DNA from: Thermoanaerobaculia bacterium
Lineage (GTDB): Bacteria; Acidobacteriota; Thermoanaerobaculia; UBA5066
Assembly (NCBI GenBank): GCA_963816185.1
Contig: CAWFJJ010000028.1
Coordinates: 320,001 to 384,000 of the forward strand
Length of the DNA: 64,000 nt
Reading direction: 5' to 3'
Part shown: positions 7,059-55,515 of the stretch, piece by piece
Layout of the letters: the number at the start of each line of letters is the position of its first letter
Position numbering within the stretch: the first letter of the stretch is position 1
Program-made: the position numbers and the translations under genes
Notes under the pieces: generated by a model
Database searches by the model: none
Told to the model about the DNA's origin: nothing
Seen by the model: only the letters and a program-made list of their open reading frames with translations

Positions 7059-8885
7059 TCAGAGCCTCTTCAGCGCCTCCATCGCTTTTTTCAGCGACTG
7101 CCGGCTCCGGAAGAACCCGGCCCACGGGTCGGGCTTCCGGAGCCGCTCGGCGAAGTTGCCGATGTTGAAATCGGCCGCCTTCAGAGACGTCTTCACCTCG
7201 GACCATTCGAGCGGCGTCGAGACGGGAGCGTGCGGGCGGCGTCGCACGGAGTAGGGTGTGACAACCGTCTGCCCGAGCGCGTTTCGGAAGGAGTCGAGGA
7301 AGACGCGGCCCTTCCGCGCCGCGATGCGCATCTCCACGGTCAGCTCCTTCGGGTACGCCGCGCTGAGGCGCGTCCCGAGCTCCTTCGCGAACCACGTGAC
7401 CTCTTTCGTGTCGGGGCCGGGCCTGATCGGCAGGAAGATGTGCAGGCCCTTTCCCCCCGACGTCTTCACGAAGGCCTTGAGGCCGAGCGCGTCCAGAGCC
7501 TGCTTCACTTTCAGCGCCGCGTTCACGGCGTCGACCATCTCGCCCGAGTCCGGGTCGAGATCGAAGCAGACCCAGTCGGGCCGGTCGAGATCGTCGACCC
7601 GGCTGTTCCAGACGTGAACGGCGATGCATCCGAGATTCGCGAGGGCGAGCTGCGTCTCGAGTTTTCCTCCCACGACCGTGTTCGTGACGCCGCGGCCGTG
7701 CTTCACGGGGATCGTCGGCGTGTCCTTCGGCATTCCGGCGGGCTTCTCCTTCTGGTAGAAGCACTCACCTCCCAGCCCGTCCGGACAGCGCTCCAGGGAA
7801 AGCGGGCGCTCGTCGACGAAGGGCTTCAGGCTCGGGAAGATCCCCTGATAGAACGCGACGAGATCCGCCTTCGTGTAGCCCTCCTCGGGCCAGAAGACCT
7901 TGTCGGGGTTCGAGACGGGGACGGGGAAAGAAGGATTTGAGGGAGACGAAGAGGAAGACGAAGACGAAAACGAAGAGGAAGATCTCTTAGAAAGGGTCTT
8001 GGTTTTCGATGCGCGCGATGAGGGCCCGCCGCCTTGTGGTGCGGGAGACCGACCGGGGGATTTCTTAGAAGGGGGCGTTGCTTTCGATGCGCGGGTCGAC
8101 TTTTCGCCGCGCGTCGGCGATGCCTCCGCCGTCTTCACTTTCAAAGAAATCTTCTCTTCGTGCTCTTCGGAGCTCACATTTTCGGCGGCAGTCTTGTTCG
8201 AATGCCAGACCGCGGGGACCTTTTTCCGCGCGCGCTCGAGGTTCTTCGGGTTCGCCAGGAGCTTTTCCACGTCGGCCACGGGGTCGCCGGTCGAAGCTTT
8301 CTCGACGTCGCCGCCCTCGTCGATCGCGATCTCGGTCAGGAGCCGATTCGACACGGCGGAGCGTGGCCGGGTATCCGCGATGTCCTCGCCCGAGGCGAAG
8401 TCGTCGCGGTGCTTGATGAGGAGCCATGTGGGCTTGGACGAACCGCCCCAGCCCTTCGTGCGCACGAGGACCCACGAGCCCTTGAGCTTGTCGCCCTGCA
8501 GGGTGAATTTGAGGTCGCCCTTCTCGAGCGCCGCATCGACGTCGGGTGAGTCAGGGCTCCATGTGCCGTTGTCCCAGATCATCACGGTCCCGCCGCCGTA
8601 TTCGCCCGCCGGGATGATCCCCTCGAAGCTCGCGTATTCGATCGGGTGATCCTCCACGTGAGTGGCGAAGCGTTTCACCGAGGGGTCGAGCGAGGGCCCC
8701 TTCGGGACGGCCCACGACAGAAGGACCCCATTCCATTCGAGGCGGAAGTCGTAGTGCAACGCGGTCGCGCGGTGCTTCTGGATGACGTAGGCGAGCCCCC
8801 CTTTTCGCGTTTTCGGCGCCCTGCCGCCCGCGGGCTCGTTCGTGACGTGGAAGCGGCGCTTTTTCCGATACTCCTCGAGCGGCAT
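7059..8885 (-). CDS. ligD: LigD-type protein: 3'-phosphoesterase domain + primase-polymerase domain, no ligase domain
   Basis: PE motifs IQKHRATALHYDFRLE, SWAVPKGPS, EDHPIEY. POL motifs SNPDKVFWP, FDLDP, KTSGGKGLHI, PYSVR. Ser/Lys-rich linker between them. Confidence 0.85.
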   Translation of the reverse strand: MPLEEYRKKRRFHVTNEPAGGRAPKTRKGGLAYVIQKHRATALHYDFRLEWNGVLLSWAVPKGPSLDPSVKRFATHVEDHPIEYASFEGIIPAGEYGGGTVMIWDNGTWSPDSPDVDAALEKGDLKFTLQGDKLKGSWVLVRTKGWGGSSKPTWLLIKHRDDFASGEDIADTRPRSAVSNRLLTEIAIDEGGDVEKASTGDPVADVEKLLANPKNLERARKKVPAVWHSNKTAAENVSSEEHEEKISLKVKTAEASPTRGEKSTRASKATPPSKKSPGRSPAPQGGGPSSRASKTKTLSKRSSSSFSSSSSSSSPSNPSFPVPVSNPDKVFWPEEGYTKADLVAFYQGIFPSLKPFVDERPLSLERCPDGLGGECFYQKEKPAGMPKDTPTIPVKHGRGVTNTVVGGKLETQLALANLGCIAVHVWNSRVDDLDRPDWVCFDLDPDSGEMVDAVNAALKVKQALDALGLKAFVKTSGGKGLHIFLPIRPGPDTKEVTWFAKELGTRLSAAYPKELTVEMRIAARKGRVFLDSFRNALGQTVVTPYSVRRRPHAPVSTPLEWSEVKTSLKAADFNIGNFAERLRKPDPWAGFFRSRQSLKKAMEALKRL

Positions 8886-9037
8886 GTCAAGACGATAGTG
8901 GCCGAGGCGAGAGAAGCCAAGCGAGCGCGGGAACGCCTCTCGGTCGAACGAGAAGCGGGTCCGGCGCGTGCTACGATCGATGCGTTTCGAGGTCATCGCG
9001 GAGCTCCGATGCCTCGGCGACGGAAGGCCTCGGGGGA

Positions 9038-11632
9038 GTGTTTTCCAGCGTGTCGAGGGAAGAGGACCAGCAACCGCTCAATCCGGACGTCCGCGAGGCG
9101 CTCTACGAGCTCCAGCGCTACCTGTCCGACACTTTGGCGCCGCTGATGGTCGCCGATTCCGTCAATCTTCTGCTCGACTATCCCGCCGACCTCGCCGCGA
9201 ACGAGATCCAAGCGTGGACGACCGCGCAATTTCGGAGCGCAAAGCCGGCGCCGGTTTCGGATTACCTTTATCACGCCGTGGAAAAGCTGCACGCGATGGG
9301 GCAGTACCAGCTCGTACCGAAGGACTCGCTTCAGCGGTACCTCGATGACCTCAAGCCCCTCGTCCTCGAGCTGTGTCCGGCCGCGGACCGCACCCTTCTT
9401 GCCCAGAACCTGGGCCGCCTCGGCAACACGGAAAGCGTCTTGTCGGCCCCCGTGGAGTTCCTGAGACGACAAGGCGGGCTCGCGGCCGGAGGCGGCCCCA
9501 CGTCGAGCGGTCTGAGGAGCGAGGACGGGCTTCCGGATACCGCGCCGCACTTGCGCGAGCTTTCATTCCTCATCGAGCGCCTCGGCCCGATGCTCGCGGC
9601 GGGCGCAACGTCCGCCCTCGGCGAGCCGAGCGGGCGCCAGGGCCCGGGCGGGCCGGCTGGATCGCGAGGCGCTGCGGCCGCGGCTGGCGCGGCTCTCGTA
9701 GGGGGGGCGGCGGCGGCCGCACTTCCGGGGGCGAGCGCGGAGCGGCGCGACGTCCTTCTGTCGCAGATTCTCTCGGTCGCGGCGATGGCCGCCCGTACCG
9801 ACGCCGAGCTGCACGCCGCTCTCGACAAGCTCCGGATCATCGGAGTCGACGTCCCGACCGCGGAGATCTTTCGTTCGCTTGGTCGCTCGGTTCCGCCGTG
9901 GTCCGTGTCGGCTCCGTCCGCACCCATCGAGCAGGCTCTCATGGCCGCGAAGAGGGCGCCGACTGCGGCGATGCGCCGTGTCGTCACCCTGCCCGAGAAT
10001 CCCGAGGAGATCGGCCGCCGCTTCAACGAGATGATCGCGGCCGCCATCGAGCAGCTCAATCAAGGCTCACTCCCTCGGGCGGCGCGGATGTTCGCCGTCG
10101 CCGAGAAGCTCGTCGCCGAGAGGCGGGTCGATCCCCGGATGACCGAGAGCGCGCGTCTCAGGGGGAAGGAAAGGGTGGACCTCGAGCGCGTCCGCTCGCT
10201 CGGAGAGGATTCCCGGAATCACGAGCCCCTCGCCCGGATCCTGTCGTTCTTCCCCGACCTGACGGCGATGAAGCTCATGGACGATCTTCGGGGCGAGGAG
10301 AAGCGCGAGCGCCGGCGCCTGCTGCTCTCCCTTCTCGAAATCCACGGCGCCGAGGCGCGCGCGACGGCGCTCGACCTCCTGGCCCGTCCCGATGAGGGCG
10401 AAACCGCGTACGACTGGCACTTCAAACGCAATCTCCTCTATCTGCTGAGGCGCATTCCACGCGCAACGGAGGAGCCGGCCAGCGCCGAGCTCGACGTCCT
10501 CATCTCGTTCGCCGACCCCTCGCTGCCGCCTGCTCTCGTGAAGGAGGCGATCGCGGGGCTCGGCACCGCGCGGCACGAGAGGTCCGAGGCGGCGCTCGTC
10601 TCGATCGTCCAGGGGCTCGAGTCCATGCTCGCGAAAAAGGCCGACGCTCCCTTCGACGAAGCCGAGCTGGCGCCGCTTCTCGACCGCGCCGTCTCGGCAC
10701 TCGCCCGCTTCGGAAGCGGGACATCGCGACGGGTCGTCGTGGAGCACGGACTGCGCCGAAAAGGAGGGCTCGGGGACGCCCGGGCGCGCCTCACGGAGCT
10801 CGCGGGTCAGGATCTCTCGGACGACCCAGAGCTCGTAGGCGTTCTTCTGAGAGGGCTGAAGGCCGAGCTGCCGTTCAGGGTCTTCGGGCTCACGCTCAAG
10901 AAGCGTGACGACAAGATCGGCCCGATCATCGACGCCCTTTCCTCCACGCCTCTGCCTCAAGTGAAGAGTGCGTTCGAGGAGATCGTGGAGCGTCACCCCG
11001 GCACCGAGTTCGCGAAGGCCGCTGCGCATGCGCTCGCGGCCTTCGCGGCGCCCAAACCCGACGAGAGCGCGCCGGTCGCGAGCCTCTCGGGCGACCTCGC
11101 GATCTTCGAGCTACCCGCTCTTCTCCAGAGCCTCGCGGCCTCGGAGGTGACGGGAACGCTGACGCTCAAGAACTCGTCCAACGCCGTCATGGGACGACTG
11201 CTCCTCGAATCCGGCCGGATCCGGGCCGCCGAGTGCGGAGCCCTTCGCGGTGACGAGGCGTGTTACCAGTTCTTCGAACGCCCGGGCGGCGCGACGTTCG
11301 CCTTCGTCCGGCAGGCGAACCTTGCGCCCCGGACCGGAGACGAGGCGCCGCCCCGCGAAGTCGTGTCGGTCCTCCTCGAGGGAATGCGCCGGTACGACGA
11401 GCTCCAGCGCTGTTCGGCCCTCGCGCCGGATGACGCGGTCTTCAAGCAGACGAGCTCGAAGCCGTCGGCCGAGCCCGAGGAACCCGACGCCGCCTTTCAG
11501 CAGGCAGTCTTCTCGAAGGCGGTTTCAGGCCTCAATTCGCGCGCCATCGAAGGCGCGGTCGCCGCGGACTCGTTCCGAGTCCGGAGGTTGCTCGCGCGCT
11601 GGGTCGAAGACGGGAGCTTGAGGGCGGCCTGA
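9038..11632 (+). CDS. Large alpha-helical protein with C-terminal DUF4388 (PATAN-like) domain
   Basis: C-terminal LSGDLAIFELPALLQSL..TGTLTL..GRI..A..GALRGDEACYQFF, then VLLEGMRRYDE. Confidence 0.7.
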   Translation: MFSSVSREEDQQPLNPDVREALYELQRYLSDTLAPLMVADSVNLLLDYPADLAANEIQAWTTAQFRSAKPAPVSDYLYHAVEKLHAMGQYQLVPKDSLQRYLDDLKPLVLELCPAADRTLLAQNLGRLGNTESVLSAPVEFLRRQGGLAAGGGPTSSGLRSEDGLPDTAPHLRELSFLIERLGPMLAAGATSALGEPSGRQGPGGPAGSRGAAAAAGAALVGGAAAAALPGASAERRDVLLSQILSVAAMAARTDAELHAALDKLRIIGVDVPTAEIFRSLGRSVPPWSVSAPSAPIEQALMAAKRAPTAAMRRVVTLPENPEEIGRRFNEMIAAAIEQLNQGSLPRAARMFAVAEKLVAERRVDPRMTESARLRGKERVDLERVRSLGEDSRNHEPLARILSFFPDLTAMKLMDDLRGEEKRERRRLLLSLLEIHGAEARATALDLLARPDEGETAYDWHFKRNLLYLLRRIPRATEEPASAELDVLISFADPSLPPALVKEAIAGLGTARHERSEAALVSIVQGLESMLAKKADAPFDEAELAPLLDRAVSALARFGSGTSRRVVVEHGLRRKGGLGDARARLTELAGQDLSDDPELVGVLLRGLKAELPFRVFGLTLKKRDDKIGPIIDALSSTPLPQVKSAFEEIVERHPGTEFAKAAAHALAAFAAPKPDESAPVASLSGDLAIFELPALLQSLAASEVTGTLTLKNSSNAVMGRLLLESGRIRAAECGALRGDEACYQFFERPGGATFAFVRQANLAPRTGDEAPPREVVSVLLEGMRRYDELQRCSALAPDDAVFKQTSSKPSAEPEEPDAAFQQAVFSKAVSGLNSRAIEGAVAADSFRVRRLLARWVEDGSLRAA

Positions 11633-11692: not shown

Positions 11693-12832
11693 TTAGTAGT
11701 AGAAGACCTGGAACTGGACGGTGTACTCGTTCGTCGAGGCCACGTTCTTGTTGTCCGGGGCATCCGTCCGCGTGAAGCCGGCCTTGATGTTGAAGTTCGC
11801 GCCGTAGGGGTACCAGCCGAGGCCGCCCTGGTACTTGGTCCGGTTGAGCCCCTTGTTCACGTCGTCCGAGTAACGCTGTTGCTCGTAGCGTATGAACGGC
11901 ATGACCTTGGCCGAGCCGATGTAGACGCCGGCTTCGCCGTAGAGGTCGTCCTGCTTGAGGAGCGCCGCCGTGTTGAACGTGACGCCGCCGTCGTAATGAA
12001 TGTAATCGGCCTGCACCGTGATGCCGTTGCCCGTCCCGACGGGATAGTCGAAGAAGAGGTCGCCGGCGTAGGCGGTGTAATCGCTCTGCGTGTCGTAGCC
12101 CCCGCCGATCGCGAGGATCTTCTTCTTTCCGAAATACGTCCCCGCGTAGAACTGGCCCTTCTCGACGTCGAACACGTCGTACTGGAGGCGCCCGGCGAAC
12201 CGGAACGAGTTCTTCACGCCGGGAGCGCGGAAGCCGGAATAGACGCCCGCGCGGTACTCGAGGTGGTCGTCCGCGAGGTAGCCCTTCGCCTGGAAGCCCG
12301 TGTCACGTCCGACCGAGGACTGCGTCGAGGCGCTCTCCTGGAACGACCAGGTGCCGTAGTCCATCGTGAGGAGGGTCACGGCGCTCGTGTTGCAGTTGCG
12401 GCAGAGCGGAATCAGGATGAGGCCGGCGTCGATCGTGAACTCGTTCGCGATCTTCCAGTCGAGGAACGCGTCCTGGACGATGAAGCCCGTGCCCGGCGCC
12501 TTGCCGCCTGCGCCGCCGGCCACCGTCTGCGTCGACTTGCCGAGGTTCGGGTTGTCGGTCATGAAGAAGAACGTGACGTCCTTCGCGACCTGACCGCCAA
12601 GGAAGAACCTGGCCCGCCGCAGGAACAGGTTCTGCTGGAACCCGGCCGTCTCCCCCGTGGCGTTGGACACGCCGTTCCAGTCGCCCCAGGCCTGCATCAG
12701 GAGTCCGAGCCGGAAGTTGACGGTATCGTTTACCTTGACGATGGCCTGCGCGTTCGCGACTGCCGGTAGCAGCGCGATGAGCAGGGCAAGGGAGACGAGG
12801 GCGAATCGATTCGAAAGAATCTTTGAACGCAC
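11693..12832 (-). CDS. Outer-membrane porin (OprO/P-like beta-barrel)
   Basis: TAAGGAGG SD + GTG start, signal peptide, FLRRARF, alternating beta-strands, aromatic C-terminus QFQVFYY. Confidence 0.8.
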   Translation of the reverse strand: MRSKILSNRFALVSLALLIALLPAVANAQAIVKVNDTVNFRLGLLMQAWGDWNGVSNATGETAGFQQNLFLRRARFFLGGQVAKDVTFFFMTDNPNLGKSTQTVAGGAGGKAPGTGFIVQDAFLDWKIANEFTIDAGLILIPLCRNCNTSAVTLLTMDYGTWSFQESASTQSSVGRDTGFQAKGYLADDHLEYRAGVYSGFRAPGVKNSFRFAGRLQYDVFDVEKGQFYAGTYFGKKKILAIGGGYDTQSDYTAYAGDLFFDYPVGTGNGITVQADYIHYDGGVTFNTAALLKQDDLYGEAGVYIGSAKVMPFIRYEQQRYSDDVNKGLNRTKYQGGLGWYPYGANFNIKAGFTRTDAPDNKNVASTNEYTVQFQVFYY

Positions 12833-12959
12833 ACCTTCCTCCTTAAAGTCAGCACGCCGACGAACGGCACGACAGGAACACATCTGTGCTCAAAATGATA
12901 GACACTCAGCAGAATGCGCGTCAACAGGAATCTCCCGGCCGTGAGTAATGCATCTGCAC

Positions 12960-13077
12960 TAGCGCAGCGGCAGCATTTCGCTTGACATCGAGCGTGAGAG
13001 TGAAAGACTCGCCGCCAGATTTGTTTGAGGTGAACTCAGCTAATGGAGTCCGCTCCGCACGATAGCGCAGCGGCAGC
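12960..13077. promoter_or_regulatory. Two 15-bp direct repeats flanking a TTGACA -35 box in the porin/MFS divergent region
   Basis: TAGCGCAGCGGCAGC at 12960-12974 and 13063-13077; TTGACA at 12982-12987. Confidence 0.5.
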
Positions 13078-13252
13078 CCGGCTTTACGTGAAGCGGGTGC
13101 CGCCTGCTCGAAGAACCGGGCGCACTCCCCGTCTTGTGCGTTAACGCGGAACAAATTTTCGGATCGAACTGGAAAAGAAGACCCTGAGCGAGATCGTCGT
13201 TGTTTCCCTAGGTCCTGGAATGCCATGAACCGAAAGGAAGGGAGGCTCTAAT

Positions 13253-14524
13253 ATGTCAAGTGCTGCTGGAACTCCGGGGGCTGCTGCCGTGCCACGTGGG
13301 GACGTAGGTTTGAATCGATGGTGGCGCGTGGTGGGCGGGCTCCTGATGAACCTGGCCCTGGGCTCGCTTTACGCCTGGAGCGTCTTCGTCGCGCCCCTGG
13401 AGAAGGAGTTCGGCTGGAAGCGGGCGGACACGTCTGCGGTGTTCACATGGGCCGTCGTCGTCTTTGCCATCGCCTTCATCGTCGCGGGGCGCCTCCAGGA
13501 CAAGCTCGGGCCTTTCATGGTCTCGATCATCGGCTGCATCTTGCTGACGGCAGGCTTCATTCTCTGCATGTGGACGAGCAGCCTCACGTACCTGATCGTC
13601 TGCTTCGGGATTCTCGTCGGCATCGGTAACGGATTCGGCTACGCGACGCCGATTCCGGTCATGTCCAAATGGTTCCCGGACAAGCGCGGCCTGGCCGTCG
13701 GTCTGGCCGTCGCGGGTTACGGCGGCGGTTCGGCCATCTTCGGACCCCTGGCGAACCTGTGGCTGATCCCGGCCTACGGCTGGCGGGCCACATTCGCCAT
13801 CCTCGGCGTCATTTTCTTCTTCATGACCCTCGTCGGAGCTTTACTGCTGAAGAACCCTCCGGCCGGATACCAGGTGCCGGGCTGGGTGCCCGCTTCAAAA
13901 CCGAAGTCCCTGGCGACAACCTACGAGTTCACTCCCGGGGAAATGTGGCGCACCCCGGCGGCGTACTTCATGTGGATCGCCTACTGCCTGGGCTGCGCTG
14001 CCGGCCTCATGGTCATCAGCCAGCTGATCCCGTTCGCCAAGAGCGAGGGGATTCCCGGCGCAGCTCTTCCCGTCATCGGGCTCGTCATAGGCGCGGCCGG
14101 GAACGCCTCCGGTCGAATCCTGTCGGGCTGGATGTCGGATGCCATGGGACGTCTCAATGTCCTGCGTCTGATGATCGCGATCTCGGCCATCTCCATGCCG
14201 ATCCTCTACCTCACCGGAAGCAACGTCGCGATGCTCTACGTGATGGTCTTCATCGTCTACTGGTGCTACGGCACGCAGCTCTCGGTGAACGCCTCGACGA
14301 CGGCCGACTTCTGGGGCACGAAGAACGTCGGCATCAACTACGGCATTCTGTTCACCGCCTGGGGTGTCGCAGGCTTCATCGGACCCCGGATCGGCGGCGT
14401 GCTCTTCGACAAGTACAAGAACTACCAGGCAGCCTTCTACACCGCGGCCGCCCTGGCGGTAGTCGCGCTCATCTGCGAGTTCCTGGCGAAGAAGCCGAAC
14501 CCGCCCGTGGGGGCGCACGCTTAG
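13253..14524 (+). CDS. MFS transporter, oxalate/formate antiporter (OFA) family
   Basis: LGSLYAWSVF, KWFPDKRGLAVGLAVAGYGGG, GRILSGWMSD, DFWGTKNVGINYG; about 12 TM segments. Confidence 0.85.
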   Translation: MSSAAGTPGAAAVPRGDVGLNRWWRVVGGLLMNLALGSLYAWSVFVAPLEKEFGWKRADTSAVFTWAVVVFAIAFIVAGRLQDKLGPFMVSIIGCILLTAGFILCMWTSSLTYLIVCFGILVGIGNGFGYATPIPVMSKWFPDKRGLAVGLAVAGYGGGSAIFGPLANLWLIPAYGWRATFAILGVIFFFMTLVGALLLKNPPAGYQVPGWVPASKPKSLATTYEFTPGEMWRTPAAYFMWIAYCLGCAAGLMVISQLIPFAKSEGIPGAALPVIGLVIGAAGNASGRILSGWMSDAMGRLNVLRLMIAISAISMPILYLTGSNVAMLYVMVFIVYWCYGTQLSVNASTTADFWGTKNVGINYGILFTAWGVAGFIGPRIGGVLFDKYKNYQAAFYTAAALAVVALICEFLAKKPNPPVGAHA

Positions 14525-14580
14525 GGGGCCGGCGCGGGTCTTGACACCGAAACTCTTTCGACAACGGACAGGAGAAGAGA

Positions 14581-15996
14581 ATGGCTGACAGCACGTTTCC
14601 CAAACACAAGGTCCTGCCTTGGCCGGCGGTTCCGATCCCGACCCCCGACGAGGTGTACGCGGGTCTTACGGATCAGGCCAAGGAATATCCCCTCTCACTC
14701 GAGAAGCAGCTCAGACAGAGCGAGAACTTCAAGAAGCCCGAGAACCTGACGACGGTGCGGGTCCTCGACCTGAGCAAGGGGATGATCATCGGCAACTGGT
14801 GTTCCTCGATGCTCTCGGAGCTCGGCTCGGACACCATCAAGTGCGAGCCGCCCGACGGCGACCCCTTGCGGTGGCAGACGCCGTTCGGACGCAAGGAGTA
14901 CATGATCAAGGATGCCGAGACCGGCGAGCCGATCGGCCTGCACTTCCTCCACGAGATGAGGAACAAACAGTCGATCACGCTCAATCTCGAGAAGCCGGAG
15001 GGACGCGAGCTCCTCAAGAAGCTCGCCGTCCACTGCGATGTCCTCATCGAGAACTACCCGCCGGGGCAGTTCGACGCATGGGGGATCGGCTATCGGCAGC
15101 TGAAGGAGATCAACCCGCGACTCGTCTACTGCTGGGTGGGGCAGAAGGGCCAGTGGGGCCCGTCGAAAGACAAGCCGGGGAACCTGGACCCGACCGCTCA
15201 GGCGGCGTGCGGATTCATACACGGCACCGGCCTCCCGAAGGAGTTCGGCGGACGGCCCACGCGCTCGGCCATGTGGATGGCGGACCAGGTCGGCGGGACG
15301 TCGGCGGCCATCGGGATTCTCGCCGCGCTCCTTTATCGCGACAAGGTCTCGGGTAAGGGTCAGTTCATCGAGGCGACGGCGGCCGAGGCCATCATCCGGA
15401 TCCTGGACTACAACTGGGGCTGGTACGGGTTCGACGGGAGCATCCGCCCCCGCTACGGGAACTGGGACCTCGCGATCAACATCTACGCCGTCAACCCGTG
15501 CAAGGACGGGTACTTCATGGTGGGCGGCGGACACGATCGCCTCTGGTACCGGATCTGGCGGACGGTGGGGCAGTCACGTCCCGACCTCGAGGACGAGATT
15601 CTCGACGACAAGAGCCTCCGGGTCGTCACGGCGCGGCTTCCGCACCTGAAGCAGGTGAAAACCTACACGGTTCTCGCCGACTGGCAGAAGGACCATTCCC
15701 GGGCGGACGCCATGCACCAGCTCCTCGCCCAGCAGGTCGCGTCCGGCGGCGTCAACTACGTCGACGAGGTGGCCGAAGACCCGCATTTCAAGTACCGCGG
15801 ACACGTCGACGAGTTCGACGATCGGCTCTACGGAAAAGTCCTCTACGGCACGTCGCCCTTGCTCGAGGACAAGGCTCCCGCGCGCCTGAAGTGGATCGGC
15901 CGGCCCTTGGGATACGACAACGAAGAGATTTATCTGAAGCTCCTCGGGCTTGGTCCGGCCGAGGTTGCCGCGCTCAAGAAGCGCGGAGTGGTTTAG
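14581..15996 (+). CDS. Family III CoA-transferase (CaiB/BaiF), subunit 1
   Basis: VRVLDLS, ELGSDTIKCEPPDGD, RNKQSITLNLEKPEGRELL, DVLIENY, MADQVGG (catalytic Asp position). Confidence 0.9.
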   Translation: MADSTFPKHKVLPWPAVPIPTPDEVYAGLTDQAKEYPLSLEKQLRQSENFKKPENLTTVRVLDLSKGMIIGNWCSSMLSELGSDTIKCEPPDGDPLRWQTPFGRKEYMIKDAETGEPIGLHFLHEMRNKQSITLNLEKPEGRELLKKLAVHCDVLIENYPPGQFDAWGIGYRQLKEINPRLVYCWVGQKGQWGPSKDKPGNLDPTAQAACGFIHGTGLPKEFGGRPTRSAMWMADQVGGTSAAIGILAALLYRDKVSGKGQFIEATAAEAIIRILDYNWGWYGFDGSIRPRYGNWDLAINIYAVNPCKDGYFMVGGGHDRLWYRIWRTVGQSRPDLEDEILDDKSLRVVTARLPHLKQVKTYTVLADWQKDHSRADAMHQLLAQQVASGGVNYVDEVAEDPHFKYRGHVDEFDDRLYGKVLYGTSPLLEDKAPARLKWIGRPLGYDNEEIYLKLLGLGPAEVAALKKRGVV

Positions 15997-16015
15997 GTCA
16001 GAGGAGGCAGCGAAG

Positions 16016-17361
16016 ATGGCCACACCCGATTTCGAAACCTACTGTCAGCAGCTCTTCGACCACAAGACGGCTGCCGGAAAGCCTGAGGTCCTGAAGGGCT
16101 ATCGCGTTCTTTCCTGCACGCAGTACATCCTTGGTCCTTCCACCGCGGCGTATCTGGCCGAACTGGGAGCCGAGGTCATCAAGATCGAGACGCCGCGGCG
16201 CGGCGAGCCGATGCGTCACACGACCCCGTTCAACGAGCCCCTCCTCTACCCTCTCTCCCGCTGGGTGCCGGAGGCGGGGACGGGCCTGGGCTTCTTCGGC
16301 GCCAACGACAACGAGGAGTTCGTCAGCCTCGACTTCCACCGGCCGGAGGCGAGGCAGGCCATGCTGGAGCTGGCGGCCAAGTCGGACGTCATGGTCCAGA
16401 ACTTCCGGCCCGGAACATTCGACCGGTGGGGAATGGGCTATCAGCACTTTTCCAAGGTCAACCCCCGCCTCGTCTATCAGTGGCTGGGCGGGTTCGGCGG
16501 CTGGGGGCCCGGACGCGTGCGCGCCTCGTACGACATCCTGGGCCAGGCCATGGGCGGCGCCTTCGGGATCACTGGCGAAGCCGCTGACCGGGGCGGGACG
16601 CCGTCCAAGCACACGATCTGGCTGGCCGACTACTGGGGCGGCATGATGGCTGCGGTCGCGATCCTGGCGGCTCTCTATCGTCGGGACACGGTTTCAGGCG
16701 AGGGGTGCTTCATCGAGTACTCGCAGGTTCACGGCGTCACGCGGCAGCTCGAGTACGCTCTTCCGCTCTACGGGCGGTACGGCATCCGGCGTGAGCGCTG
16801 GGGCAACTGGGACACCGAGCTCTGCGCACACGGGATCGTCCAGTGCGGCAAGTCGTCCTATCCGGGCTCCAAGAACCCGCAGGAAGCCGAGGTGGGGTAC
16901 ATCCTCGTCACGGCCCACACGGACGAGGACTTCAAGAAGCTGTGCGACGTGATCGGGCCGGAAGGACCTTGCCGACGTCACTCGGGAAACACGACGACCG
17001 CGTCAAGGCCGAGAATCAGGGCACCGTCTACGATGCCATCGAGGCCTGGGCGAAGGACAAGAGCAAGGAAGACGTGGCGAACCTTCTCGACAAGGCCGGC
17101 ATCAACAACCAGCCGGTGTGGAACGCGAAGGAGGTCTCCGAGCACCCTCACTGGAAGCTCCGCGGCGCGGTCCAGTGGATCGACGATCCGATCTTCGGCG
17201 ATCTGCACCATCAGGGTCCCGCCTTCATGATGTCCGAGACGCCTCCGCGCCTGAAGTGGGCGCTGAAGCCCGTGGGCGCCGACAACGAGCGGGTCTACGG
17301 ACGGCTCCTCGGGTGGACGAAATCGAAGCTCGCGAAGATGGAAGAGATGGAGGTGATCTGA
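16016..17361 (+). CDS. Family III CoA-transferase, subunit 2 (apparent frameshift near 16960)
   Basis: AELGAEVIKIE, DVMVQNFRPG, LADYWGG. The C-terminus (PVGADNERVYGRLLG) continues in ORF 16843..17361. Confidence 0.88.
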
Positions 17362-17362
17362 G

Positions 17363-17785
17363 ATGGCCAGCGAGACGACCTCCGGCGTCATCAAACAGGG
17401 TCTGGTGCTCACGTGCGCCAAGTGCTCCACCAAGAACTTCCTCGACCCGTATCCGTTCTGGAACTTCAGCGGCAACACGAAATGTGCCGGCTGCGACGCC
17501 ATCTACGCCGTTAAGTTCGTCAAGGGCCAGCAGGAGAGCGGGCCGACGGCCACCTCCGGGAAAGCGGATCTTCTTCCGGGCTACGCCGAAGACAAGAACG
17601 GCGCCGCCATCACCGGGGAAGGAAAGATCCGCCCCGCCCCGCAGGCGCGGCCCGATCCCTTCACCGGGCAGCAGAAGCAGATCACGAAGAGCCTCCGGGG
17701 CAAGCCGGTCAGCGGCAGCCGTCTCAAGAAGGAAGATCTCGTGGGAAGCCGGCCCAAGTTCATCGTGGACTTGCGCAAGAGCTGA
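17363..17785 (+). CDS. Hypothetical Zn-ribbon-like protein (CxxC..CxxC)
   Basis: CAKC and CAGC motifs; ATG 1 bp after the upstream stop; GC3-rich codons. Confidence 0.7.
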   Translation: MASETTSGVIKQGLVLTCAKCSTKNFLDPYPFWNFSGNTKCAGCDAIYAVKFVKGQQESGPTATSGKADLLPGYAEDKNGAAITGEGKIRPAPQARPDPFTGQQKQITKSLRGKPVSGSRLKKEDLVGSRPKFIVDLRKS

Positions 17786-17801
17786 AGAAGGAGAAAAAGC
17801 C

Positions 17802-17996
17802 GTGGCACAGACCGAGAAGAAAAAGGAAACGTCGACTTACAAGTGCTGCGAGCACTTCGAGGCCGCGCTGGATCCGAACATCCTGAGGGCGTACGTCGGC
17901 TACTGCAAGGCGCGCGCATGGCCCTTCACGGTGATGGTCCCCATCGGCGGCCTGGAGGGTGAGTGTCCGAAGCCCCCGATCAAGAAGAAGGCCTAA
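17802..17996 (+). CDS. Hypothetical small Cys-rich protein (64 aa)
   Basis: AAGGAG SD + GTG; MAQTEKKKETSTYKCCEHF..GYCKARAWPF..GECPKPPIKKKA. Confidence 0.6.
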   Translation: MAQTEKKKETSTYKCCEHFEAALDPNILRAYVGYCKARAWPFTVMVPIGGLEGECPKPPIKKKA

Positions 17997-18013
17997 GACG
18001 GCCGGGAACAGGC

Positions 18014-18346
18014 ATGGCGAGCCTCCGAGAGGAGTTCGAGCAGCGGTACGGACGGCTCTGGTCCGGCGCGTCGTCACTCGAAATCGGGGGCGTCACCTAC
18101 GAGCTTGAAGAGGTGATGCACAAGATCGGCTTCGGCTTCGAGGGGCTCAAGCTCATCGACGCCCCTCGGGTCGAAGCCGGCCGCGCCGCCATCCGTTTCT
18201 TCGACGGCGAGGTTCGCTGCATCGTGTGCCTCGAGCTGGGGGAGGATCTTACGATTCTGGAAGAGCATCGCGTCCACATCGCCGAGTGGCTTGGGGATGC
18301 CTACTTCGAGACGGAATGGCAGGTGAACTGCCCCATGGATTTCTGA
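18014..18346 (+). CDS. Hypothetical acidic protein, paralog of 54171..54503
   Basis: 31/85 ungapped identities to 54171..54503 by manual alignment; lies within the operon. Confidence 0.75.
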   Translation: MASLREEFEQRYGRLWSGASSLEIGGVTYELEEVMHKIGFGFEGLKLIDAPRVEAGRAAIRFFDGEVRCIVCLELGEDLTILEEHRVHIAEWLGDAYFETEWQVNCPMDF

Positions 18347-18357
18347 GAGGAGACACC

Positions 18358-18783
18358 ATGAAAGTCAAGTTCTACTACTCCAGCAAGGACAAGCCGGGCG
18401 AGCAGTACCCGTGCAACATCGCGGCCTGCCTCGAGAAGGTCAAGAAATTGAAGGCGCAGGGATACGACGTCGAGGCGATCGACGTCGCCGGTGTGGCGGA
18501 TGTGTTCCGCTTCTACCATTCGGCCCTGACCGGTCCGCCCGCGACCGTCCGCGCCGTCTTCGGCATGAAGGGAGCGCTCGAGGCCGACTTCGGCCGTACG
18601 ACGCCCGCCGTCCTCGCCTTCGGCGATCCGAAGGACCGCTACCCGACCGACGCCTACCCGCGGCAGGATCAGGGCAGGGGCGGACTCGTCGGATGCGAGA
18701 AGGCTCTCGACGACCTCGCCAAGGAGCTCGCCAAGCTGCCGGCGACCGAGGACGAAGAGGAGGAGCAGGAGGCGAGTCGTTGA
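18358..18783 (+). CDS. Hypothetical protein, possibly thioredoxin-like fold
   Basis: GAGGAG SD; MKVKFYYS..PCNIAAC..YDVEAIDV; acidic tail; stop overlaps the next start. Confidence 0.65.
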   Translation: MKVKFYYSSKDKPGEQYPCNIAACLEKVKKLKAQGYDVEAIDVAGVADVFRFYHSALTGPPATVRAVFGMKGALEADFGRTTPAVLAFGDPKDRYPTDAYPRQDQGRGGLVGCEKALDDLAKELAKLPATEDEEEEQEASR

Positions 18784-20447
18784 GCACGATCCCCGCGGAT
18801 TACCTGCCCCCGAAGGAATATCAGCCCCAGCGGATCTACAAGCTCGAGGAGTTCGCGACCTATCCCGATCCGCTGAACAGCACCGAGGAGCTGCTCGACA
18901 AGCAGGTCGCGGCGGGGAGGGGCGACAGCCGCGCGATCCTCTTCGGTGACAAGATCATCACGTATAAGCAGCTCCTGGGGGCTGCCTGCAAGATCGGCAA
19001 TGCCCTCAGGAAGCTCGGCGTCGAGGAAGCGGACCGGGTCATGCTCCGGTCGCCGAACGTTCCGCCCGCCCTCTTCACGAACTTCGGCGTCCTGAGGCTC
19101 GGAGCCGTGATGGTCCCGACCTCGCACATGCTCTCTCCGAACGAGATCGCGCACATCGCGAACAACGCCGAGGCGAAAGTGATCATCGTGGCGGCGGCCT
19201 TCCTCGAGGGGGTCGTCAAGGCCCGGGCGAATCTCAAGACGGTCAAGCATGTCATCGTCTTCGGCGGGAACCCGGAGGAGCTGAAGACGCAGGGGCTGCT
19301 CTCCTACGAAGAGCTCGTCGCGAACGAGTCGCCGGCGCTCGAACCCGTTCGCCGTCCGCGCACCGCCGTCTCCGTCCTCCTCTATACGTCTGGAACGACG
19401 GGGATGCCCAAGGGAACGGCGCACTTCATGGAAGAGGCGCTGATCGTCCCGGACACCATGGGAAAGCACGGATGGAACGTGCAGCCCGAGGACATCCTCT
19501 GCGGCCCGGCCCCCATCTCGTTGGCCGGCGGGTACTCGACGGTGGCGACGATTCCCTTCAGGTTCGGCGCCGCGGCCTCCCTGATCCCGAAGTTCACCCC
19601 AGACGGGCTCTTCGAGCTGATCCAGAGCCACAAGGTGACGATCCTGAGCGCTCTCCCCACGGCGTATCGGAAGATGCTCGAGGTTTCGGGCGCCGAGAAG
19701 AAGTACGACCTGTCGAGCCTCCGCGTTCTGACGGGCGGCGGCGAATCGCTGACCGCAAAGACGTATCTGGATTGGAAAGCCCGCTTCGGCCAGGAGATCT
19801 ACGAGGGCCTCGGAACGACGGAGATGATGTACGTCTTCGTCTCCAGCGTCGTCACCCGCAAGGTGAAGCCGGGCGCGATCGGCACCGCGGTCCCCGGATA
19901 CGAGATCCAGGTCATAACGGAAGATGGCAAGGTCGCGAAGCCGGGAGAGCTGGGAAGGCTCTATGCACGCGGTCCCACGGGACCCCTTTACTGGCGTCCC
20001 CTCGAGGAGGGCGGAAGTCTTCTCGAGAAGCAAAAATCGCTCATCCGCGAAGGCTGGGCCCTGGTCGGCGACTTCTGCACGATGGACGAGGAGGGATACC
20101 TCAGCTTCGTCTCCCGCCAGGAGGATCTGATCAAGAGCTCCGGCTACCGCATCGGACCCGAGGAGATCGAGGATGCGCTCCTCAAACACCCCGCCGTGGC
20201 GGACGCGGGCGTGATCGGGATCCCGGATCCTGTCCGGGGACAGAACGTCAAGGCCGCCGTCATCCTGCGGCCCGGCTACACGCCGAGCGAGGAGCTGAAG
20301 CAGAAGCTCATCGACAGCTGTCGGGACCACATCGCGATTTACAAGCTGCCGCGCATCGTGGAGTTCGTCACGGAGCTGCCGCGAACGCTGCAGGGAAAGC
20401 TCCTTCGGCGGGTCCTGCGAGACAAGGAGGTCGTCGCCACGAGATAG
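18780..20447 (+). CDS. AMP-forming acyl-CoA synthetase (benzoate/2-aminobenzoate-CoA ligase-like)
   Basis: YTSGTTGMPKG, EGLGTTE, IKSSGYRIGPEEIE, PRTLQGKLLR (acetylatable Lys); N-terminal LPP..YP..LN..ELLD. Confidence 0.88.
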   Translation: MSTIPADYLPPKEYQPQRIYKLEEFATYPDPLNSTEELLDKQVAAGRGDSRAILFGDKIITYKQLLGAACKIGNALRKLGVEEADRVMLRSPNVPPALFTNFGVLRLGAVMVPTSHMLSPNEIAHIANNAEAKVIIVAAAFLEGVVKARANLKTVKHVIVFGGNPEELKTQGLLSYEELVANESPALEPVRRPRTAVSVLLYTSGTTGMPKGTAHFMEEALIVPDTMGKHGWNVQPEDILCGPAPISLAGGYSTVATIPFRFGAAASLIPKFTPDGLFELIQSHKVTILSALPTAYRKMLEVSGAEKKYDLSSLRVLTGGGESLTAKTYLDWKARFGQEIYEGLGTTEMMYVFVSSVVTRKVKPGAIGTAVPGYEIQVITEDGKVAKPGELGRLYARGPTGPLYWRPLEEGGSLLEKQKSLIREGWALVGDFCTMDEEGYLSFVSRQEDLIKSSGYRIGPEEIEDALLKHPAVADAGVIGIPDPVRGQNVKAAVILRPGYTPSEELKQKLIDSCRDHIAIYKLPRIVEFVTELPRTLQGKLLRRVLRDKEVVATR

Positions 20448-28647: not shown

Positions 28648-29985
28648 ATGAGAAAGGCGCTACTCCTTCAGTACGCAGACGTCCTGTTCAACTCGATCCC
28701 GCACGCCATCTTCACCGTCGACGAGCGCTGTCAGATCACCCAATTCAACAAGACGGCCGAGCAGATAACAGGATGGAGATGTGAGGAAGTGCTCGGCCGC
28801 CGCTGCGCCGAGGTCCTGCGCAGCCAGAGCTGCGAACACGGCTGCGTGCTGCAGGACAGCATGAAGGGCGGCGAGAAGCACCGCGATGACGAGACGATGA
28901 TCCTGACCCGGGACGGACGGACCGTCGCCCATCGCCGTGAGCACCGCAGCGCTCCGGGACGGGGAGGGTCGCCTCATCGGCGGGGTGGAGATGTTCCGGG
29001 ATCTTTCCGAGGTCGCGGAGCTTCGACGAAAGCTCCTCGGGACCTACGTGTGCGAGGACATCATCACGAAGAGCAACGCCATGCAAGGCGTGCGTGAGAT
29101 CCTCCCGCTCGTGGCCCGGAGCGACAGCACCGTCCTCATCGAAGGGGAGCCGGGAACGGGAAAGGAGCTCGTGGCTCGGGCGATCCACAACCTCGGCCCG
29201 CGCCGAGAGCGTCCCTTCGTGGCGGTCAACTGCGGCGCCATCCCGGATACGCTCGTCGAGTCGGAGCTCTTCGGCCACCTGCAAGGCGCCTTCACGGACG
29301 CCAAGAGAGACAAGCCGGGCCGTTTCGCGGTCGCGGAAGGGGGAAGCCTCTCTGCTGGACGAGGTGGGCGAGCTGTCGCCGTCGGTCCAGGTCAAGCTCC
29401 TTCGCGTGCTGCAGGAGCGGAAGTACACGCCGCTGGGCGGGGTCGAGGCGATCAAGGCTGACGTCCGAGATCCTGGCGGCCACCAACCGGGACCTCTCGG
29501 CCGAGGTGCTGAAGGGGCGTTTCCGGCAGGACCTCTACTTCCGTCTCAACGTCGTCCGGGTCACGTTGCCGCCGCTGCGCAGCCGGACCGAGGACATCCC
29601 GCTCCTCGTGCAGCACTTCATCGCGCGCTTCAACGCCCTGCAGGGACGGAGAATCAAGGGGATTTCCGTGCACGCGATGGCTGCGCTTCTCGCCCATTCA
29701 TTTCCCGGCAACGTGAGGGAGCTGGAGAACGCCATCGAGCACGCCTTCGTCGTGTGTTGCTCGAATACGATCGAGGTCGGGGACCTCCCGCTGCACGTCG
29801 GGCGCGACACGGCCATCCCCCACACGCACGCGAAGGACGATCTCGCGCCGCTGGAACAAGCCGAGTGCCTCACCATTCGCGAGGCCCTGGACCGCCACCG
29901 GAGGAATCGGGGCGAAACGGCGAAGGATCTGGGGATCTCCCGAAACACCCTTTGGCGCAAGATGAAGGCCTATGGAATAGCATAA
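28648..29985 (+). CDS. PAS-domain sigma54-dependent enhancer-binding protein with Fis HTH (frameshifted)
   Basis: GEPGTGKE, FVAVNCGA, ESELFGH..GAFTDA, LLDEVGE, FRQDLYFRLN, FPGNVRELEN, LGISRNTLWRK. Confidence 0.88.
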
Positions 29986-30072
29986 GGGTCACTCGGCGGG
30001 ATCGCCCGGAACCTGGACCATCTGATCTGACGGTTGCGCGAATGGGGCCTGCCGGAGGCAAGGAGATCCCCG

Positions 30073-30885
30073 ATGGCGGTCGTGACCGTATCGCGCGGAG
30101 CGGGGAGCAAGGGCCAAGTCTTCGCGCAGGACCTCGCCGCCCGTCTCGACTACGAGATCGTGAGCCGCGAGGACGTGGTTCAGGAGGCTGCGAAGCACGG
30201 GGTCCCGGCCGAGAGGCTGCAGAAGGCGCTCCTCGAAGCTCCCGGCTTCTGGGACCGGCTCTCCCTGGACCGCAAGCGCTACCTGGCGTTCGTGCAGGAG
30301 GCTTTGGCGGAACGTGCGCGCAAGGACCGAATCGTCTACGAGGGAAACGCAGGCCACCTGCTGCTCCGCGGAATCTCGCACGTCGTGTGCATACGCCTCC
30401 TTGCTCCCCTCTCCCAGCGCGTCCAGACGGCGATGGAAAGCCTCGGGATGGACGACACCAACGCGCTCCGGTACATCGAAGACTCGGATCGCGAACGTGA
30501 GAATTGGACGCGCTTCCTTTACGGAGTCGACTGGCTCGATCCGACCCTGTATGACGTCACGCTCAACCTGAGGACCCTCGCGCTCGGGGGTGCCGTCGAT
30601 GCGGCGCTGGCGGTGGTCCAGCGTCCGGAGTTCGCTCCGACAGACGACAGCCGGCTCGCGATGGATAACCTCCTGCTCGAGAGCCGCGTTCGGGCTGCCC
30701 TGGCGGCGGAGGACGAGACCGCCGCAGCGGCCGTCCAGGTCCTTGCCAATCGGGGGGTCGTTTCGCTGCGCGGCCGGGTCCGCCCGAGCCGGATGGTCGA
30801 TGCCGTCGTCGGCGTCGTGCGCCATGTGGAGGGTGTGAGGCAGATCGACCAGCGAGACCTCGACGCCCCCGAGTACACCGTCTAG
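30073..30885 (+). CDS. Cytidylate-kinase-like family protein with C-terminal BON domain
   Basis: VVTVSRGAGSKG, LAARLDYEIVSRE, D..R..W.RFLYGVDWLDPTLYD; BON-like GVVSLRGRV..VEGVRQI. Confidence 0.8.
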   Translation: MAVVTVSRGAGSKGQVFAQDLAARLDYEIVSREDVVQEAAKHGVPAERLQKALLEAPGFWDRLSLDRKRYLAFVQEALAERARKDRIVYEGNAGHLLLRGISHVVCIRLLAPLSQRVQTAMESLGMDDTNALRYIEDSDRERENWTRFLYGVDWLDPTLYDVTLNLRTLALGGAVDAALAVVQRPEFAPTDDSRLAMDNLLLESRVRAALAAEDETAAAAVQVLANRGVVSLRGRVRPSRMVDAVVGVVRHVEGVRQIDQRDLDAPEYTV

Positions 30886-40993: not shown

Positions 40994-41787
40994 TTGACGA
41001 ACGTCGAGATCCTCGGGCGGAATCTCGAATACCGCTGGATCGGACCGCCGCCCGGCGACGCGCCGTCGATCGTGTTCCTGCACGAGGGCCTCGGCTGCGC
41101 CGCGATGTGGCGGGACTTCCCCGACCGCGTGGCGTCCGCGGCTGGCTGCGGCGCTCTCGTCTACAGCCGGACGGGCTACGGCGGCTCCGACCCGGTGCTC
41201 GCGCCGCGGCCCGTTCGCTACATTCACGACGAGGCGCTCGAGGTGCTCCCGGCCGTCCTGGAGCATTTCAAGCTCGAGAAGGCCGTTCTTTTCGGTCACA
41301 GCGACGGCGCGTCGATCGCACTCATCCATGCCGGCGCCCGTTCAAGCTCCGTCCGCGCGCTGATCCTCGAGGCTCCGCACGTCGTCGTGGAACGGTCAGC
41401 CTCGAGGGCATCACGCGGATCACAGCGGATTACGAGACGACGAACCTGAGAGAGCGGCTTGCTCGGCATCACGGCCGCAACACCGACTCGATGTTTCGGG
41501 CGTGGTCCGACGTGTGGCTCAGACCCGAGTTCCGGCAGTGGAGCATTGAAGAGTATCTGCCGTCGATCGAGTGCCCCGTCCTCGTCGTGCAAGGCGAGGA
41601 CGACCAGTACGGCACCCGAAAGCAGGTGGACGCCGTCGTGACGAAGGTCAGGGGTCCGGCCGAATCGCTGATCCTTCCGCGTTGCGGCCACTCTCCGCAC
41701 TCGGAGCGGCCGGACGAAGTCCTCGACGCGGCTCTCCGGTTCATCCGAAACACGCTCGATCCGCGGCGCGACGCGCCGCCTGCTTAG
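40994..41787 (+). CDS. Alpha/beta hydrolase (frameshift near 41395)
   Basis: FLHEGLG, GHSDGAS, QGEDDQYGT, CGHSPH. Confidence 0.82.
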
Positions 41788-46416: not shown

Positions 46417-46432
46417 GGACTCGAGGTGTGCC

Positions 46433-50414: not shown

Positions 50415-50434
50415 GATCTTCCTCCTCGAGCTGC

Positions 50435-51388: not shown

Positions 51389-51438
51389 GAGCGGTCAGTC
51401 TCCCGTCGCATTTCGCGCCTCGCCATTCGTCCTCTCCC

Positions 51439-53346: not shown

Positions 53347-53365
53347 GGAACTGCCTCCTTGATTC

Positions 53366-54142: not shown

Positions 54143-54170
54143 CTGAAGTCTCCTTTGCCGGCCGCTCTCT

Positions 54171-55514: not shown

Positions 55515-55515
55515 C

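Follow-up and report, generated by a model that had tools for sequence, protein, structure and literature searches.

What does an operon encode that joins two coenzyme A (CoA) transferases and an acyl-CoA ligase to a run of small orphan proteins? The question is raised by a stretch of 64,000 nucleotides (nt) from a Thermoanaerobaculia bacterium (GenBank assembly GCA_963816185.1, contig CAWFJJ010000028.1, positions 320,001 to 384,000 of the forward strand; hereafter the window), in which eight plus-strand genes encode a transporter of the major facilitator superfamily (MFS), two family-III CoA-transferases (CT1 and CT2), four small proteins (ZnR140, Cys64, ac111 and trx141) and an AMP-forming acyl-CoA ligase (Table 1). 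We tentatively propose that the operon encodes a CoA-transferase module primed by the ligase, with a short monocarboxylate as substrate and with the small proteins as obligate, partly metal-binding partners; our confidence in this reading stays a little short of even. Soils, peat and sediments commonly contain Thermoanaerobaculia and related Acidobacteriota, of which almost none has been cultured, and half of the genes of this operon belong to families without a name, a structure or any literature.

The gene arrangement is conserved far beyond chance. In the first 11 related loci that were compared, genes for an MFS transporter (this one or another), CT1, CT2, ZnR, Cys64, ac111, trx141 and the ligase occur in the same order, with amino acid identities of 77-98%. 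Beyond these, 103 loci were compared, 23 from genomes and 80 from metagenomes. In all 103 the order of the cluster genes is kept up to the ends of the contigs, and 52 of them hold the complete ordered set of CT1, CT2, ZnR, Cys64 and ligase. The initial annotation had treated the small open reading frames (ORFs) as real genes that belong with the transferases, and this is borne out, as no locus lacks ZnR or Cys64 if its contig extends that far. The stable core consists of CT1, CT2, ZnR, Cys64 and the ligase, usually accompanied by trx141. Three or four compact orphan families thereby gain a precise biochemical neighbourhood.

CT1 is 90-98% identical across two families, compared with 55-86% for the flanking porin and a neighbouring 864-amino-acid gene product, and by this measure the operon is under unusually strong purifying selection. 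Recent transfer was considered as the cause of the high identity between families and was set aside, since the genes of a second module (see below) are also 73-87% identical between the same families. Within the order to which the window belongs, 61 genomes were compared, and the same 12 carry both ZnR140 and ac111 orthologues, each in single copy; these make up 8 of the 29 genomes of the genus (including the genome of the window) and 4 of the 17 of a second family, while none of the 7 of a third has them. ZnR was present in 5 of 401 genomes sampled evenly across the phylum, and 3 of these 5 belong to one genus of a different family. Because of this patchy occurrence of ZnR and ac111 the operon is to be regarded as an accessory trait. 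The related loci come from uncultured Acidobacteriota, mostly of the class Thermoanaerobaculia, in soil, peat, sediment and groundwater metagenomes; three related bins carry other phylum labels, for which mis-binning is possible. At least 554 stretches in the metagenome collection encode relatives of ZnR. One further candidate locus (L053), with 41% identity over 53 residues of trx141, was treated as spurious, because the match lies inside long opposite-strand ORFs and no other cluster gene is present.

Table 1. Genes of the operon and of the linked regions of the window, in window coordinates.
Feature	Position	Strand	Assignment or remark
Divergent outer-membrane porin, ExtI-like	11693-12883	-	NCBIfam porin_ExtI, below cut-off
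MFS, SfMCT-type monocarboxylate transporter	13253-14524	+	MFS_1 (Pfam); NCBIfam SfMCT
CT1, family-III CoA-transferase subunit	14581-15996	+	PF02515, E=5e-83
CT2, second family-III CoA-transferase subunit	16016-17361	+	PF02515 over two frames
ZnR140, 140 amino acids, four-Cys zinc ribbon and long conserved tail	17363-17785	+	Core member
Cys64, 64 amino acids, four conserved Cys	17802-17996	+	GTG start; core member
ac111, 110 amino acids, alpha+beta, orphan family	18014-18346	+	Accessory to the cluster
trx141, 141 amino acids, thioredoxin-like topology	18358-18783	+	Without conserved redox Cys
AMP-forming acyl-CoA ligase	18780-20447	+	PF00501 and PF13193; TTG start
Three U32-family paralogues (UbiU/UbiV/TrhP-like)	49446-52401	-	PF01136, three times
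128-amino-acid ORF, enoyl-CoA hydratase, ac-family paralogue, DUF4177, alpha/beta-hydrolase, standalone PAS	53041-55962	-	Gene run
Amidohydro_2 protein	58880-59740	+	PF04909

Pfam identified the CoA_transf_3 domain in both CT1 and CT2, in line with the earlier assignment of two family-III CoA-transferases, and the two proteins are 34-39% identical to each other. The best PDB matches of CT1 are the formyl-CoA-transferase-like chain 10uh and SUGCT, and it also matches both chains of BbsEF. The best PDB match of CT2 is chain B of benzylsuccinate CoA-transferase (9fn0_B, E=2.4e-35). Alignment with these solved family-III chains supports the earlier remark that both transferases keep the aspartate at the catalytic position: the Asp of MADQVGG in CT1 aligns with that of MTDIVAG and MTDLATG in 10uh and SUGCT, and the Asp of LADYWGG in CT2 aligns with an Asp in 9fn0_B. 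We take this aspartate to be the catalytic residue that forms the acyl-anhydride. Both proteins score far below every NCBIfam equivalog cut-off, including that for formyl-CoA transferase (Frc; 139 and 111 bits, cut-off 504) and that for L-carnitine CoA-transferase (85 and 76 bits, cut-off 413), and the acid that they use cannot be read from homology.

The two adjacent paralogous family-III genes resemble those of BbsEF (PDB 9fn0), and by analogy CT1 and CT2 probably form a heteromer; the interlocked dimer of the family would then be made up of CT1 and CT2. The succinyl-CoA:L-malate CoA-transferase SmtAB is a second example of a paired family-III transferase. Unlike in the BbsEF system, bbs beta-oxidation genes are absent here, the transporter is of the lactate type and three orphan small proteins lie between transferase and ligase; the sequence similarity to BbsEF is also low.

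In the window itself CT2 does not form one ORF, contrary to what the initial annotation had assumed, as it is interrupted by two single-base insertions. One ORF (15950-17230) carries the N-terminal 315 residues and a second (16843-17361) the last 123 residues, with a net shift of +2 nt. The two PF02515 pieces (E=4.6e-69 and 6.1e-12) jointly cover profile positions 1-366. CT2 is continuous in 11 of the 11 orthologues first compared, and an intact orthologue has 448 amino acids. Alignment of the DNA with orthologues places the two extra bases of the window inside a stretch of 25 nt. A near-identical strain is represented by a DNA contig of 266 nt in which single bases are missing at 16954 and at 16975 and which otherwise differs at four places. 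The three RNA-library contigs that cover this site, all from relatives, are also short by a net 2 nt modulo 3. These comparisons argue that the interruption is probably an assembly artefact and not the mark of a pseudogene. Elsewhere in the window, Pfam domains lie over overlapping ORFs in different frames in at least four genes, those for a sigma-54 activator (28907-30500), an ABC ATPase/permease (38074-39832), an ADP-forming acyl-CoA synthetase (41299-43816) and a Ser/Thr kinase (59949-60890). These frame-split genes suggest that the assembly contains many indel errors. Two relatives assembled in few long contigs show breaks as well, in the ligase of one genome (G007) and in trx141 of another (G008).

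The ligase contains both domains expected from its class (PF00501, E=4.7e-72; PF13193, E=7.3e-22). Its best PDB matches are, in order, anthranilate-CoA ligase 4wv3, acetyl-CoA synthetase 9g79, the medium-chain enzyme 3etc and benzoate-CoA ligases, and from these relatives it can be classed as a putative short/medium-chain or aryl-type AMP-forming ligase. The C-terminus (...PRTLQGKLLRR) carries the PxxxxGK lysine motif, of which the lysine is presumably the catalytic residue and a target of acetylation systems.

The transporters are the sole consistent pointer to the acid. The MFS protein of the window passes the NCBIfam equivalog cut-off for SfMCT, the L-lactate:H+ symporter of Syntrophobacter fumaroxidans (392 bits, cut-off 320), and matches its structure (PDB 6g9x) with E=3.5e-69. 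Among the ligand-site residues of SfMCT (L28, Y119, L145, N276, R280, Y331 and F335), 5 of 7 are kept in the window protein, including the carboxylate-binding Y119, N276, R280 and Y331, whereas L145 is changed to Y and F335 to L. The SfMCT report describes the transporter as L-lactate-specific, with L145 and F335 confining the carboxylate (PMC6573034). As both of these residues are replaced, the substrate may differ from that of SfMCT. The MFS proteins linked to the core in three other lineages are 38% (L052 and L129) and 63% (L139) identical to that of the window and score 375-437 bits against the SfMCT cut-off of 320, and one related locus has an AceTr acetate transporter in place of the MFS gene. 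All linked transporters, among those scored, are thus of the lactate or the acetate type. We therefore favour a short monocarboxylate, possibly 2-hydroxy-substituted, as the putative substrate; an aromatic acid is kept as an option because the ligase has aryl-type relatives. If the transporter evidence is right, the operon would handle a lactate- or acetate-like acid, among the main currencies of carbon flow in anoxic soil, by chemistry that is hidden from current annotation.

The porin encoded divergently from the MFS gene scores 105.7 bits against the NCBIfam porin_ExtI cut-off of 150. It lies beside the MFS gene in 4 loci of the same genus, with 81-86% identity, and is likely the entry of the substrate through the outer membrane. 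A citrate synthase gene was seen within 3-4 kb of the ligase in two divergent loci, on the same strand in one (L051:13162-14463) and on the opposite strand in the other (L113:15368-16678), which may hint at acetyl-CoA as an end product.

The transporter had previously been described as OFA-type, and together with family-III transferases this could imply an oxalate/formate system of the Frc-OxlT type from which the decarboxylase was lost or relocated. The description holds in the wide sense, as the MFS protein falls in the OFA subfamily, and both transferases partly match formyl-CoA transferase models. However, the transporter is of the lactate type and not of the oxalate/formate type: it reaches only 201 bits against the cut-off of 335 of the equivalog for the oxalate/formate antiporter OxlT and passes the SfMCT model instead. 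The transferases, at the scores given above, remain far from the Frc cut-off. Moreover, oxalate is reported not to inhibit SfMCT (PMC6573034), and the scanned ORFs of the window and the related loci contain no thiamine-diphosphate enzyme. We regard an oxalate/formate system as highly improbable.

What the small proteins contribute is less easily answered. None of the four ORFs matches a Pfam family (to E<=10) or an NCBIfam family, and PDB searches with sequences and profiles of the four families gave a best E of 0.067. The earlier view that they correspond to no described subunit has thus withstood single-sequence and profile searches of Pfam, NCBIfam and PDB.

ZnR140 has four cysteines (C18, C21, C41 and C44) that are invariant in 13 sequences. 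The remainder of the protein is a conserved tail of roughly 95 residues with low predicted structure, in which a long run of invariant residues (GKxDxLPGYAE ... RGxPxSG ... LxGS) is set in otherwise low-complexity sequence. Against Pfam it gave no DUF35 match at E<=10 and only generic zinc-ribbon matches at E>=0.02. A search with the ZnR140 profile against 1.84 billion representative proteins retrieved 74 clusters at E<=1e-3, 42 of them at E<=1e-10; nearly all are small proteins, and the most distant members of the family are 32-43% identical. In Cys64, C35 and C55 are invariant in 18 sequences, and C15 and C16 are nearly so. The four-cysteine sites of ZnR140 and Cys64 most likely hold a metal, judging from this pattern of conservation. 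Small four-cysteine zinc-ribbon proteins beside CoA-ester enzymes are also represented by the DUF35/BbsA type, which provides a precedent for a scaffold role. ZnR140 differs from this type in lacking a DUF35 match, and by sequence it would have the extended tail in place of an OB-fold domain.

Cys64 and trx141 are encoded as a single ORF of about 212 amino acids in 24 of 89 loci, and also in three 100%-complete genomes of another family. Since they are fused in one clade, which is classical fusion evidence, the two proteins would be expected to work together. In the fused proteins (L113:10405-11043, L127:10399-11034, L121:7194-7856 and L139:13303-13956) an Ala/Lys/Pro-rich segment, 20-30 residues long, connects the two parts and resembles flexible swinging-arm linkers.

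The fusion also bears on which small proteins form the core. The initial annotation had placed all four there, and this stands for ZnR140 and Cys64, which are constant, but not for the other two. Of 90 loci, 65 have the gene for ac111 in the slot that separates Cys64 from trx141 and 25 lack it there; 24 of these 25 carry the Cys64-trx141 fusion, so that Cys64 and trx141 are not separate proteins there. In one locus (L129) the order is ZnR, an ac-family gene, Cys64 and ligase, and trx141 is absent.

The AlphaFold2 (AF2) model of ac111, built from 21 sequences, is an alpha+beta fold with a pLDDT of 85.6. Comparison of this fold with the PDB by Foldseek gave no match at E<=0.001, and the best Z in the wide VIA search was 5.0, where the noise range of the tool is 7-8. 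For an ac111 orthologue in the ESM Atlas the only matches were at <=0.78 and to unnamed clusters. A search of a collection of 5.8 billion proteins gave 159 matches, for which all source names shown are 'hypothetical protein'. A paralogue of ac111 is encoded within the window (54171-54503, minus strand; 33-37% identity), and another clade has two ac-family copies just after an alpha/beta-hydrolase gene.

For trx141, the former label of a thioredoxin-like cysteine protein is only partly appropriate. The AF2 model (pLDDT 64.7) shows a b-a-b-a-b-b-a order of secondary structure, and the VIA matches, although weak (Z 4-5.3, under the noise range of 7-8), consist almost entirely of thioredoxin-fold chains, redox-inactive PDI b' domains among them. 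However, the cysteines C19 and C24 lie in a CX4C arrangement (CNIAAC), several of the 18 orthologues have N, S or A in their place, and a conserved CxxC or CxxS redox motif at the start of helix 1 is absent. Invariant in the 18 orthologues are instead the motifs FGMKGxLExDFGR and RYPTDAYPRxD. Foldseek gave no PDB match at E<=0.001, and the ESM Atlas no usable match. A search for longer, fused relatives of trx141 gave none at E<=0.001 among 1384 candidates, which is weak evidence by the tool's own statement. Prediction of a complex of trx141, Cys64 and ZnR140 as partner scored 0.01 against a mark of 0.32, in a run without controls, and carries no weight for or against contact. RNA-library contigs of relatives skip 44-61 nt at 18716-18778, which matches an acidic C-terminal tail of trx141 that varies in length.

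Could the small proteins themselves be an enzyme? ZnR140 and Cys64-trx141, with or without an ac-family protein, might form a new metalloenzyme that acts on the acyl-CoA, for example as an isomerase, dehydratase or lyase, while the transferase closes the CoA loop. The conserved core offers no other candidate for the transforming step, the four-cysteine sites are kept in ZnR140 and Cys64, and the invariant polar motifs of trx141 look more like a site than like a surface. In addition, a ligase together with a family-III transferase is, as in the cai genes, the hallmark of a CoA loop around one enzyme. On the other hand, searches by fold and by sequence gave no link to an enzyme, one variant of the cluster does without trx141 and ac111 is optional, and ZnR140, judged from its sequence, would be mostly an extended tail and not a fold that forms a pocket. 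We consider such a metalloenzyme unlikely. Equally doubtful in our view is the related possibility that ZnR140, Cys64-trx141 and the ac-family protein are subunits of a new metal-dependent enzyme or carrier that handles a small acid, for example lactate, as its CoA thioester; on its Ala/Lys/Pro-rich linker the four-cysteine Cys64 domain would then swing to and fro, with the thioredoxin-like domain on one side and the ligase or transferase on the other. If this held true, CoA-ester biochemistry would gain a new enzyme architecture, and soil Acidobacteria a new route of short-acid turnover. Of the two roles that the small proteins may have, that of a mere scaffold comes close to an even chance in our judgement, whereas we place the performance of the missing chemical step clearly lower.

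In the module with partner proteins that we prefer, the porin and the SfMCT-type proton symporter would import the acid, and the AMP-forming ligase would make the first acyl-CoA and so prime the cycle. The CT1-CT2 heteromer would subsequently move CoA from the product or another donor thioester to fresh substrate. By this recycling of CoA, ATP would be saved, as in the CaiB/CaiC and BbsEF systems. ZnR140 and Cys64, with trx141 and sometimes an ac-family protein, would be obligate partners of the ligase and transferase machinery, and the conserved tail of ZnR140 most likely docks on the large enzymes as a scaffold or clamp. What the comparisons show directly is the content, order and coupling of the genes, their conservation, the fusion, the conserved cysteine sites, the type of transporter and the aspartate kept in both transferases; the heteromer, the priming-and-recycling logic, metal binding, the physical association of the small proteins and the class of substrate we infer.

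The caiTABCDE operon is comparable in combining a transporter, an AMP-forming priming ligase (CaiC), a recycling family-III transferase (CaiB) and a crotonase (CaiD), and an enoyl-CoA hydratase is encoded in the module linked to the operon described here. It differs in that the transferase here has two subunits, an acyl-CoA dehydrogenase is absent and the small proteins are unrelated to CaiE. The type of operon, a CoA-transferase with a ligase, is already known. Not known before are the orphan proteins as obligate partners, the way in which they are fused and the association with genes for PAS, hydrolase and ac-family proteins; among the papers listed in literature searches, judged by title or abstract and with supplements outside the search, none describes such a cluster.

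Several observations weigh against this proposal. The set of small proteins varies, with ac111 missing from its slot in 25 of 90 loci and no trx141 in L129, and fixed subunits would not usually vary in this way. In the model of trx141 the motifs with the highest conservation fall in loops of low confidence and could mark an active site equally well as an interface. The changes of L145 and F335 in the SfMCT pocket mean that lactate itself is not established, and two features fit a larger or aromatic acid better: the closest solved relative of the ligase is an anthranilate-CoA ligase, and in one lineage a TonB-type outer-membrane barrel lies between the MFS gene and CT1.

The genes around the core in other lineages provide a further view of the pathway. 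The clade with the fused gene has the core embedded in a longer series of genes. In L113, genes for a hotdog thioesterase, three U32 proteins, an ABM-like ORF of 105 amino acids, an Amidohydro_2 protein, CT1, CT2, ZnR, Cys64-trx, ligase, PAS, alpha/beta-hydrolase and two ac-family proteins form one run on the same strand, and L127 and L121 resemble it. PAS, hydrolase and ac-family genes lie directly 3' of the ligase in L113, L127, L121 and L139-L141. L101 has an enoyl-CoA hydratase gene before CT1, and thioesterase, hydrolase and U32 genes after the ligase. U32 genes adjoin the core in L113, L127, L121, L101 and L051. In L097 a second pair of family-III CoA-transferases with an enoyl-CoA hydratase was seen directly after the ligase (13113-16638).

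In the window the counterparts of the L113-type neighbours lie 30-40 kb from the core, at 49.4-59.7 kb. The Amidohydro_2 protein is 43% identical to that encoded at L113:6033-6875, which abuts CT1. The enoyl-CoA hydratase scores above the cut-off of PRK08139, and for the alpha/beta-hydrolase no PDB relative was found at E<=0.001. This second module (53041-59740) also encodes a 945-amino-acid Pat-like protein with GNAT and ADP-forming acyl-CoA synthetase parts. The three linked U32 proteins match the UbiU, UbiV and TrhP models, yet with 136, 95 and 87 bits they score far below the cut-offs of 275-534, they occur as a set of three and their link to the core is not universal; their cysteine motifs, read by eye, are partial. 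The trio adjoins a MarR gene and a gene for a branched-chain-type periplasmic binding protein, and such a trio in a catabolic-looking cluster is unusual. The second module is kept in relatives, also in genomes without the core (G017, G026 and G027). Conversely, a search for U32a at E<=1e-20 had no match in three 100%-complete genomes with the core, in which PAS, hydrolase and ac-family genes still follow the ligase. The link of the PAS, hydrolase and ac-family genes to the core is therefore general, and that of U32 and Amidohydro_2 is frequent but separable.

The statement in the initial annotation that no decarboxylase, dehydrogenase or lyase is recognizable is accordingly valid for 13-20 kb only. 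It does not extend to other loci, where Amidohydro_2, three U32, alpha/beta-hydrolase, enoyl-CoA hydratase and hotdog thioesterase genes adjoin the core. This opens the possibility that the operon is one arm of a larger, O2-independent pathway for aromatic or heteroaromatic acids, in which the U32 trio would hydroxylate the CoA ester, a reading that we hold to be improbable. The Amidohydro_2 protein, alpha/beta-hydrolase, enoyl-CoA hydratase and hotdog thioesterase would complete the degradation, which we rate no higher. The same-strand position of the three U32 genes, the ABM-like ORF and Amidohydro_2 immediately 5' of CT1 in L113 and L127 points in this direction, as do the U32 genes adjacent to the core in L121, L101 and L051 and the anthranilate- and benzoate-CoA ligases among the best solved relatives of the ligase. 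Known U32 oxidases are reported to hydroxylate aromatic or heteroaromatic carbons without O2 (PMC11574389; PMC10990095). Against it stand the three complete core genomes without a U32a match, the genome G017 of the same genus, which has the U32 cluster and no ZnR and so indicates that the modules are separable, and the linked transporters, which are all of the lactate or acetate type.

A regulatory role of the small proteins was also considered, as regulators or assembly factors in acid or redox sensing, or in control of the ligase together with lysine acetylation. A Pat-like acetyltransferase, two HDAC-family proteins and a standalone PAS protein are encoded in this region and in relatives, and the ligase keeps the C-terminal GK lysine that acetylation systems target. 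However, the small genes lie strictly between those for CT2 and the ligase, are translationally coupled and encode proteins of 77-98% identity across two families, features that are more typical of stoichiometric partners, and Pfam and NCBIfam revealed no DNA-binding or sensor domain in the small proteins. We consider regulation or assembly improbable, at a level slightly below that of the aromatic pathway, and retain the reading as partners of the ligase and transferases. Two HDAC-family deacetylase genes flank two genes for CBS-domain proteins at 43928-48189 (plus strand), beside the ADP-forming acyl-CoA synthetase gene; together with the Pat-like gene, the HDAC-family pair looks like lysine-acetylation control near several acyl-CoA enzymes.

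The eight genes are closely spaced, as had been reported: coordinates, spacing and gene list agree with the earlier values of 1-56 bp and one overlap. The intergenic gaps are 56, 19, 1, 16, 17 and 11 nt, and the TTG start of the ligase at 18780 overlaps the stop of trx141 by 4 nt (TTGA). Shine-Dalgarno-like purine-rich runs, read as ribosome-binding sites, lie upstream of each gene start. Rfam gave no riboswitch at E<=1 in 12700-14700, and a promoter and terminator scan gave nothing above shuffled expectation. Response-regulator and kinase genes 3' of the ligase (20.5-24.5 kb) were considered as regulators of the operon and rejected, as they are absent from 11 of 11 related loci. All 30 bins of the operon stretch are covered by soil metatranscriptome contigs from a single study (two runs, with 649 and 655 contigs at >=88% identity). 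This gives a hint that the operon is transcribed in soil, although most of these contigs come from relatives and DNA carry-over is possible, which argues against a firm claim of expression. At 7062-9077 on the minus strand, an ORF in which no ligase domain was detected encodes a LigD-type protein with phosphoesterase and primase-polymerase domains.

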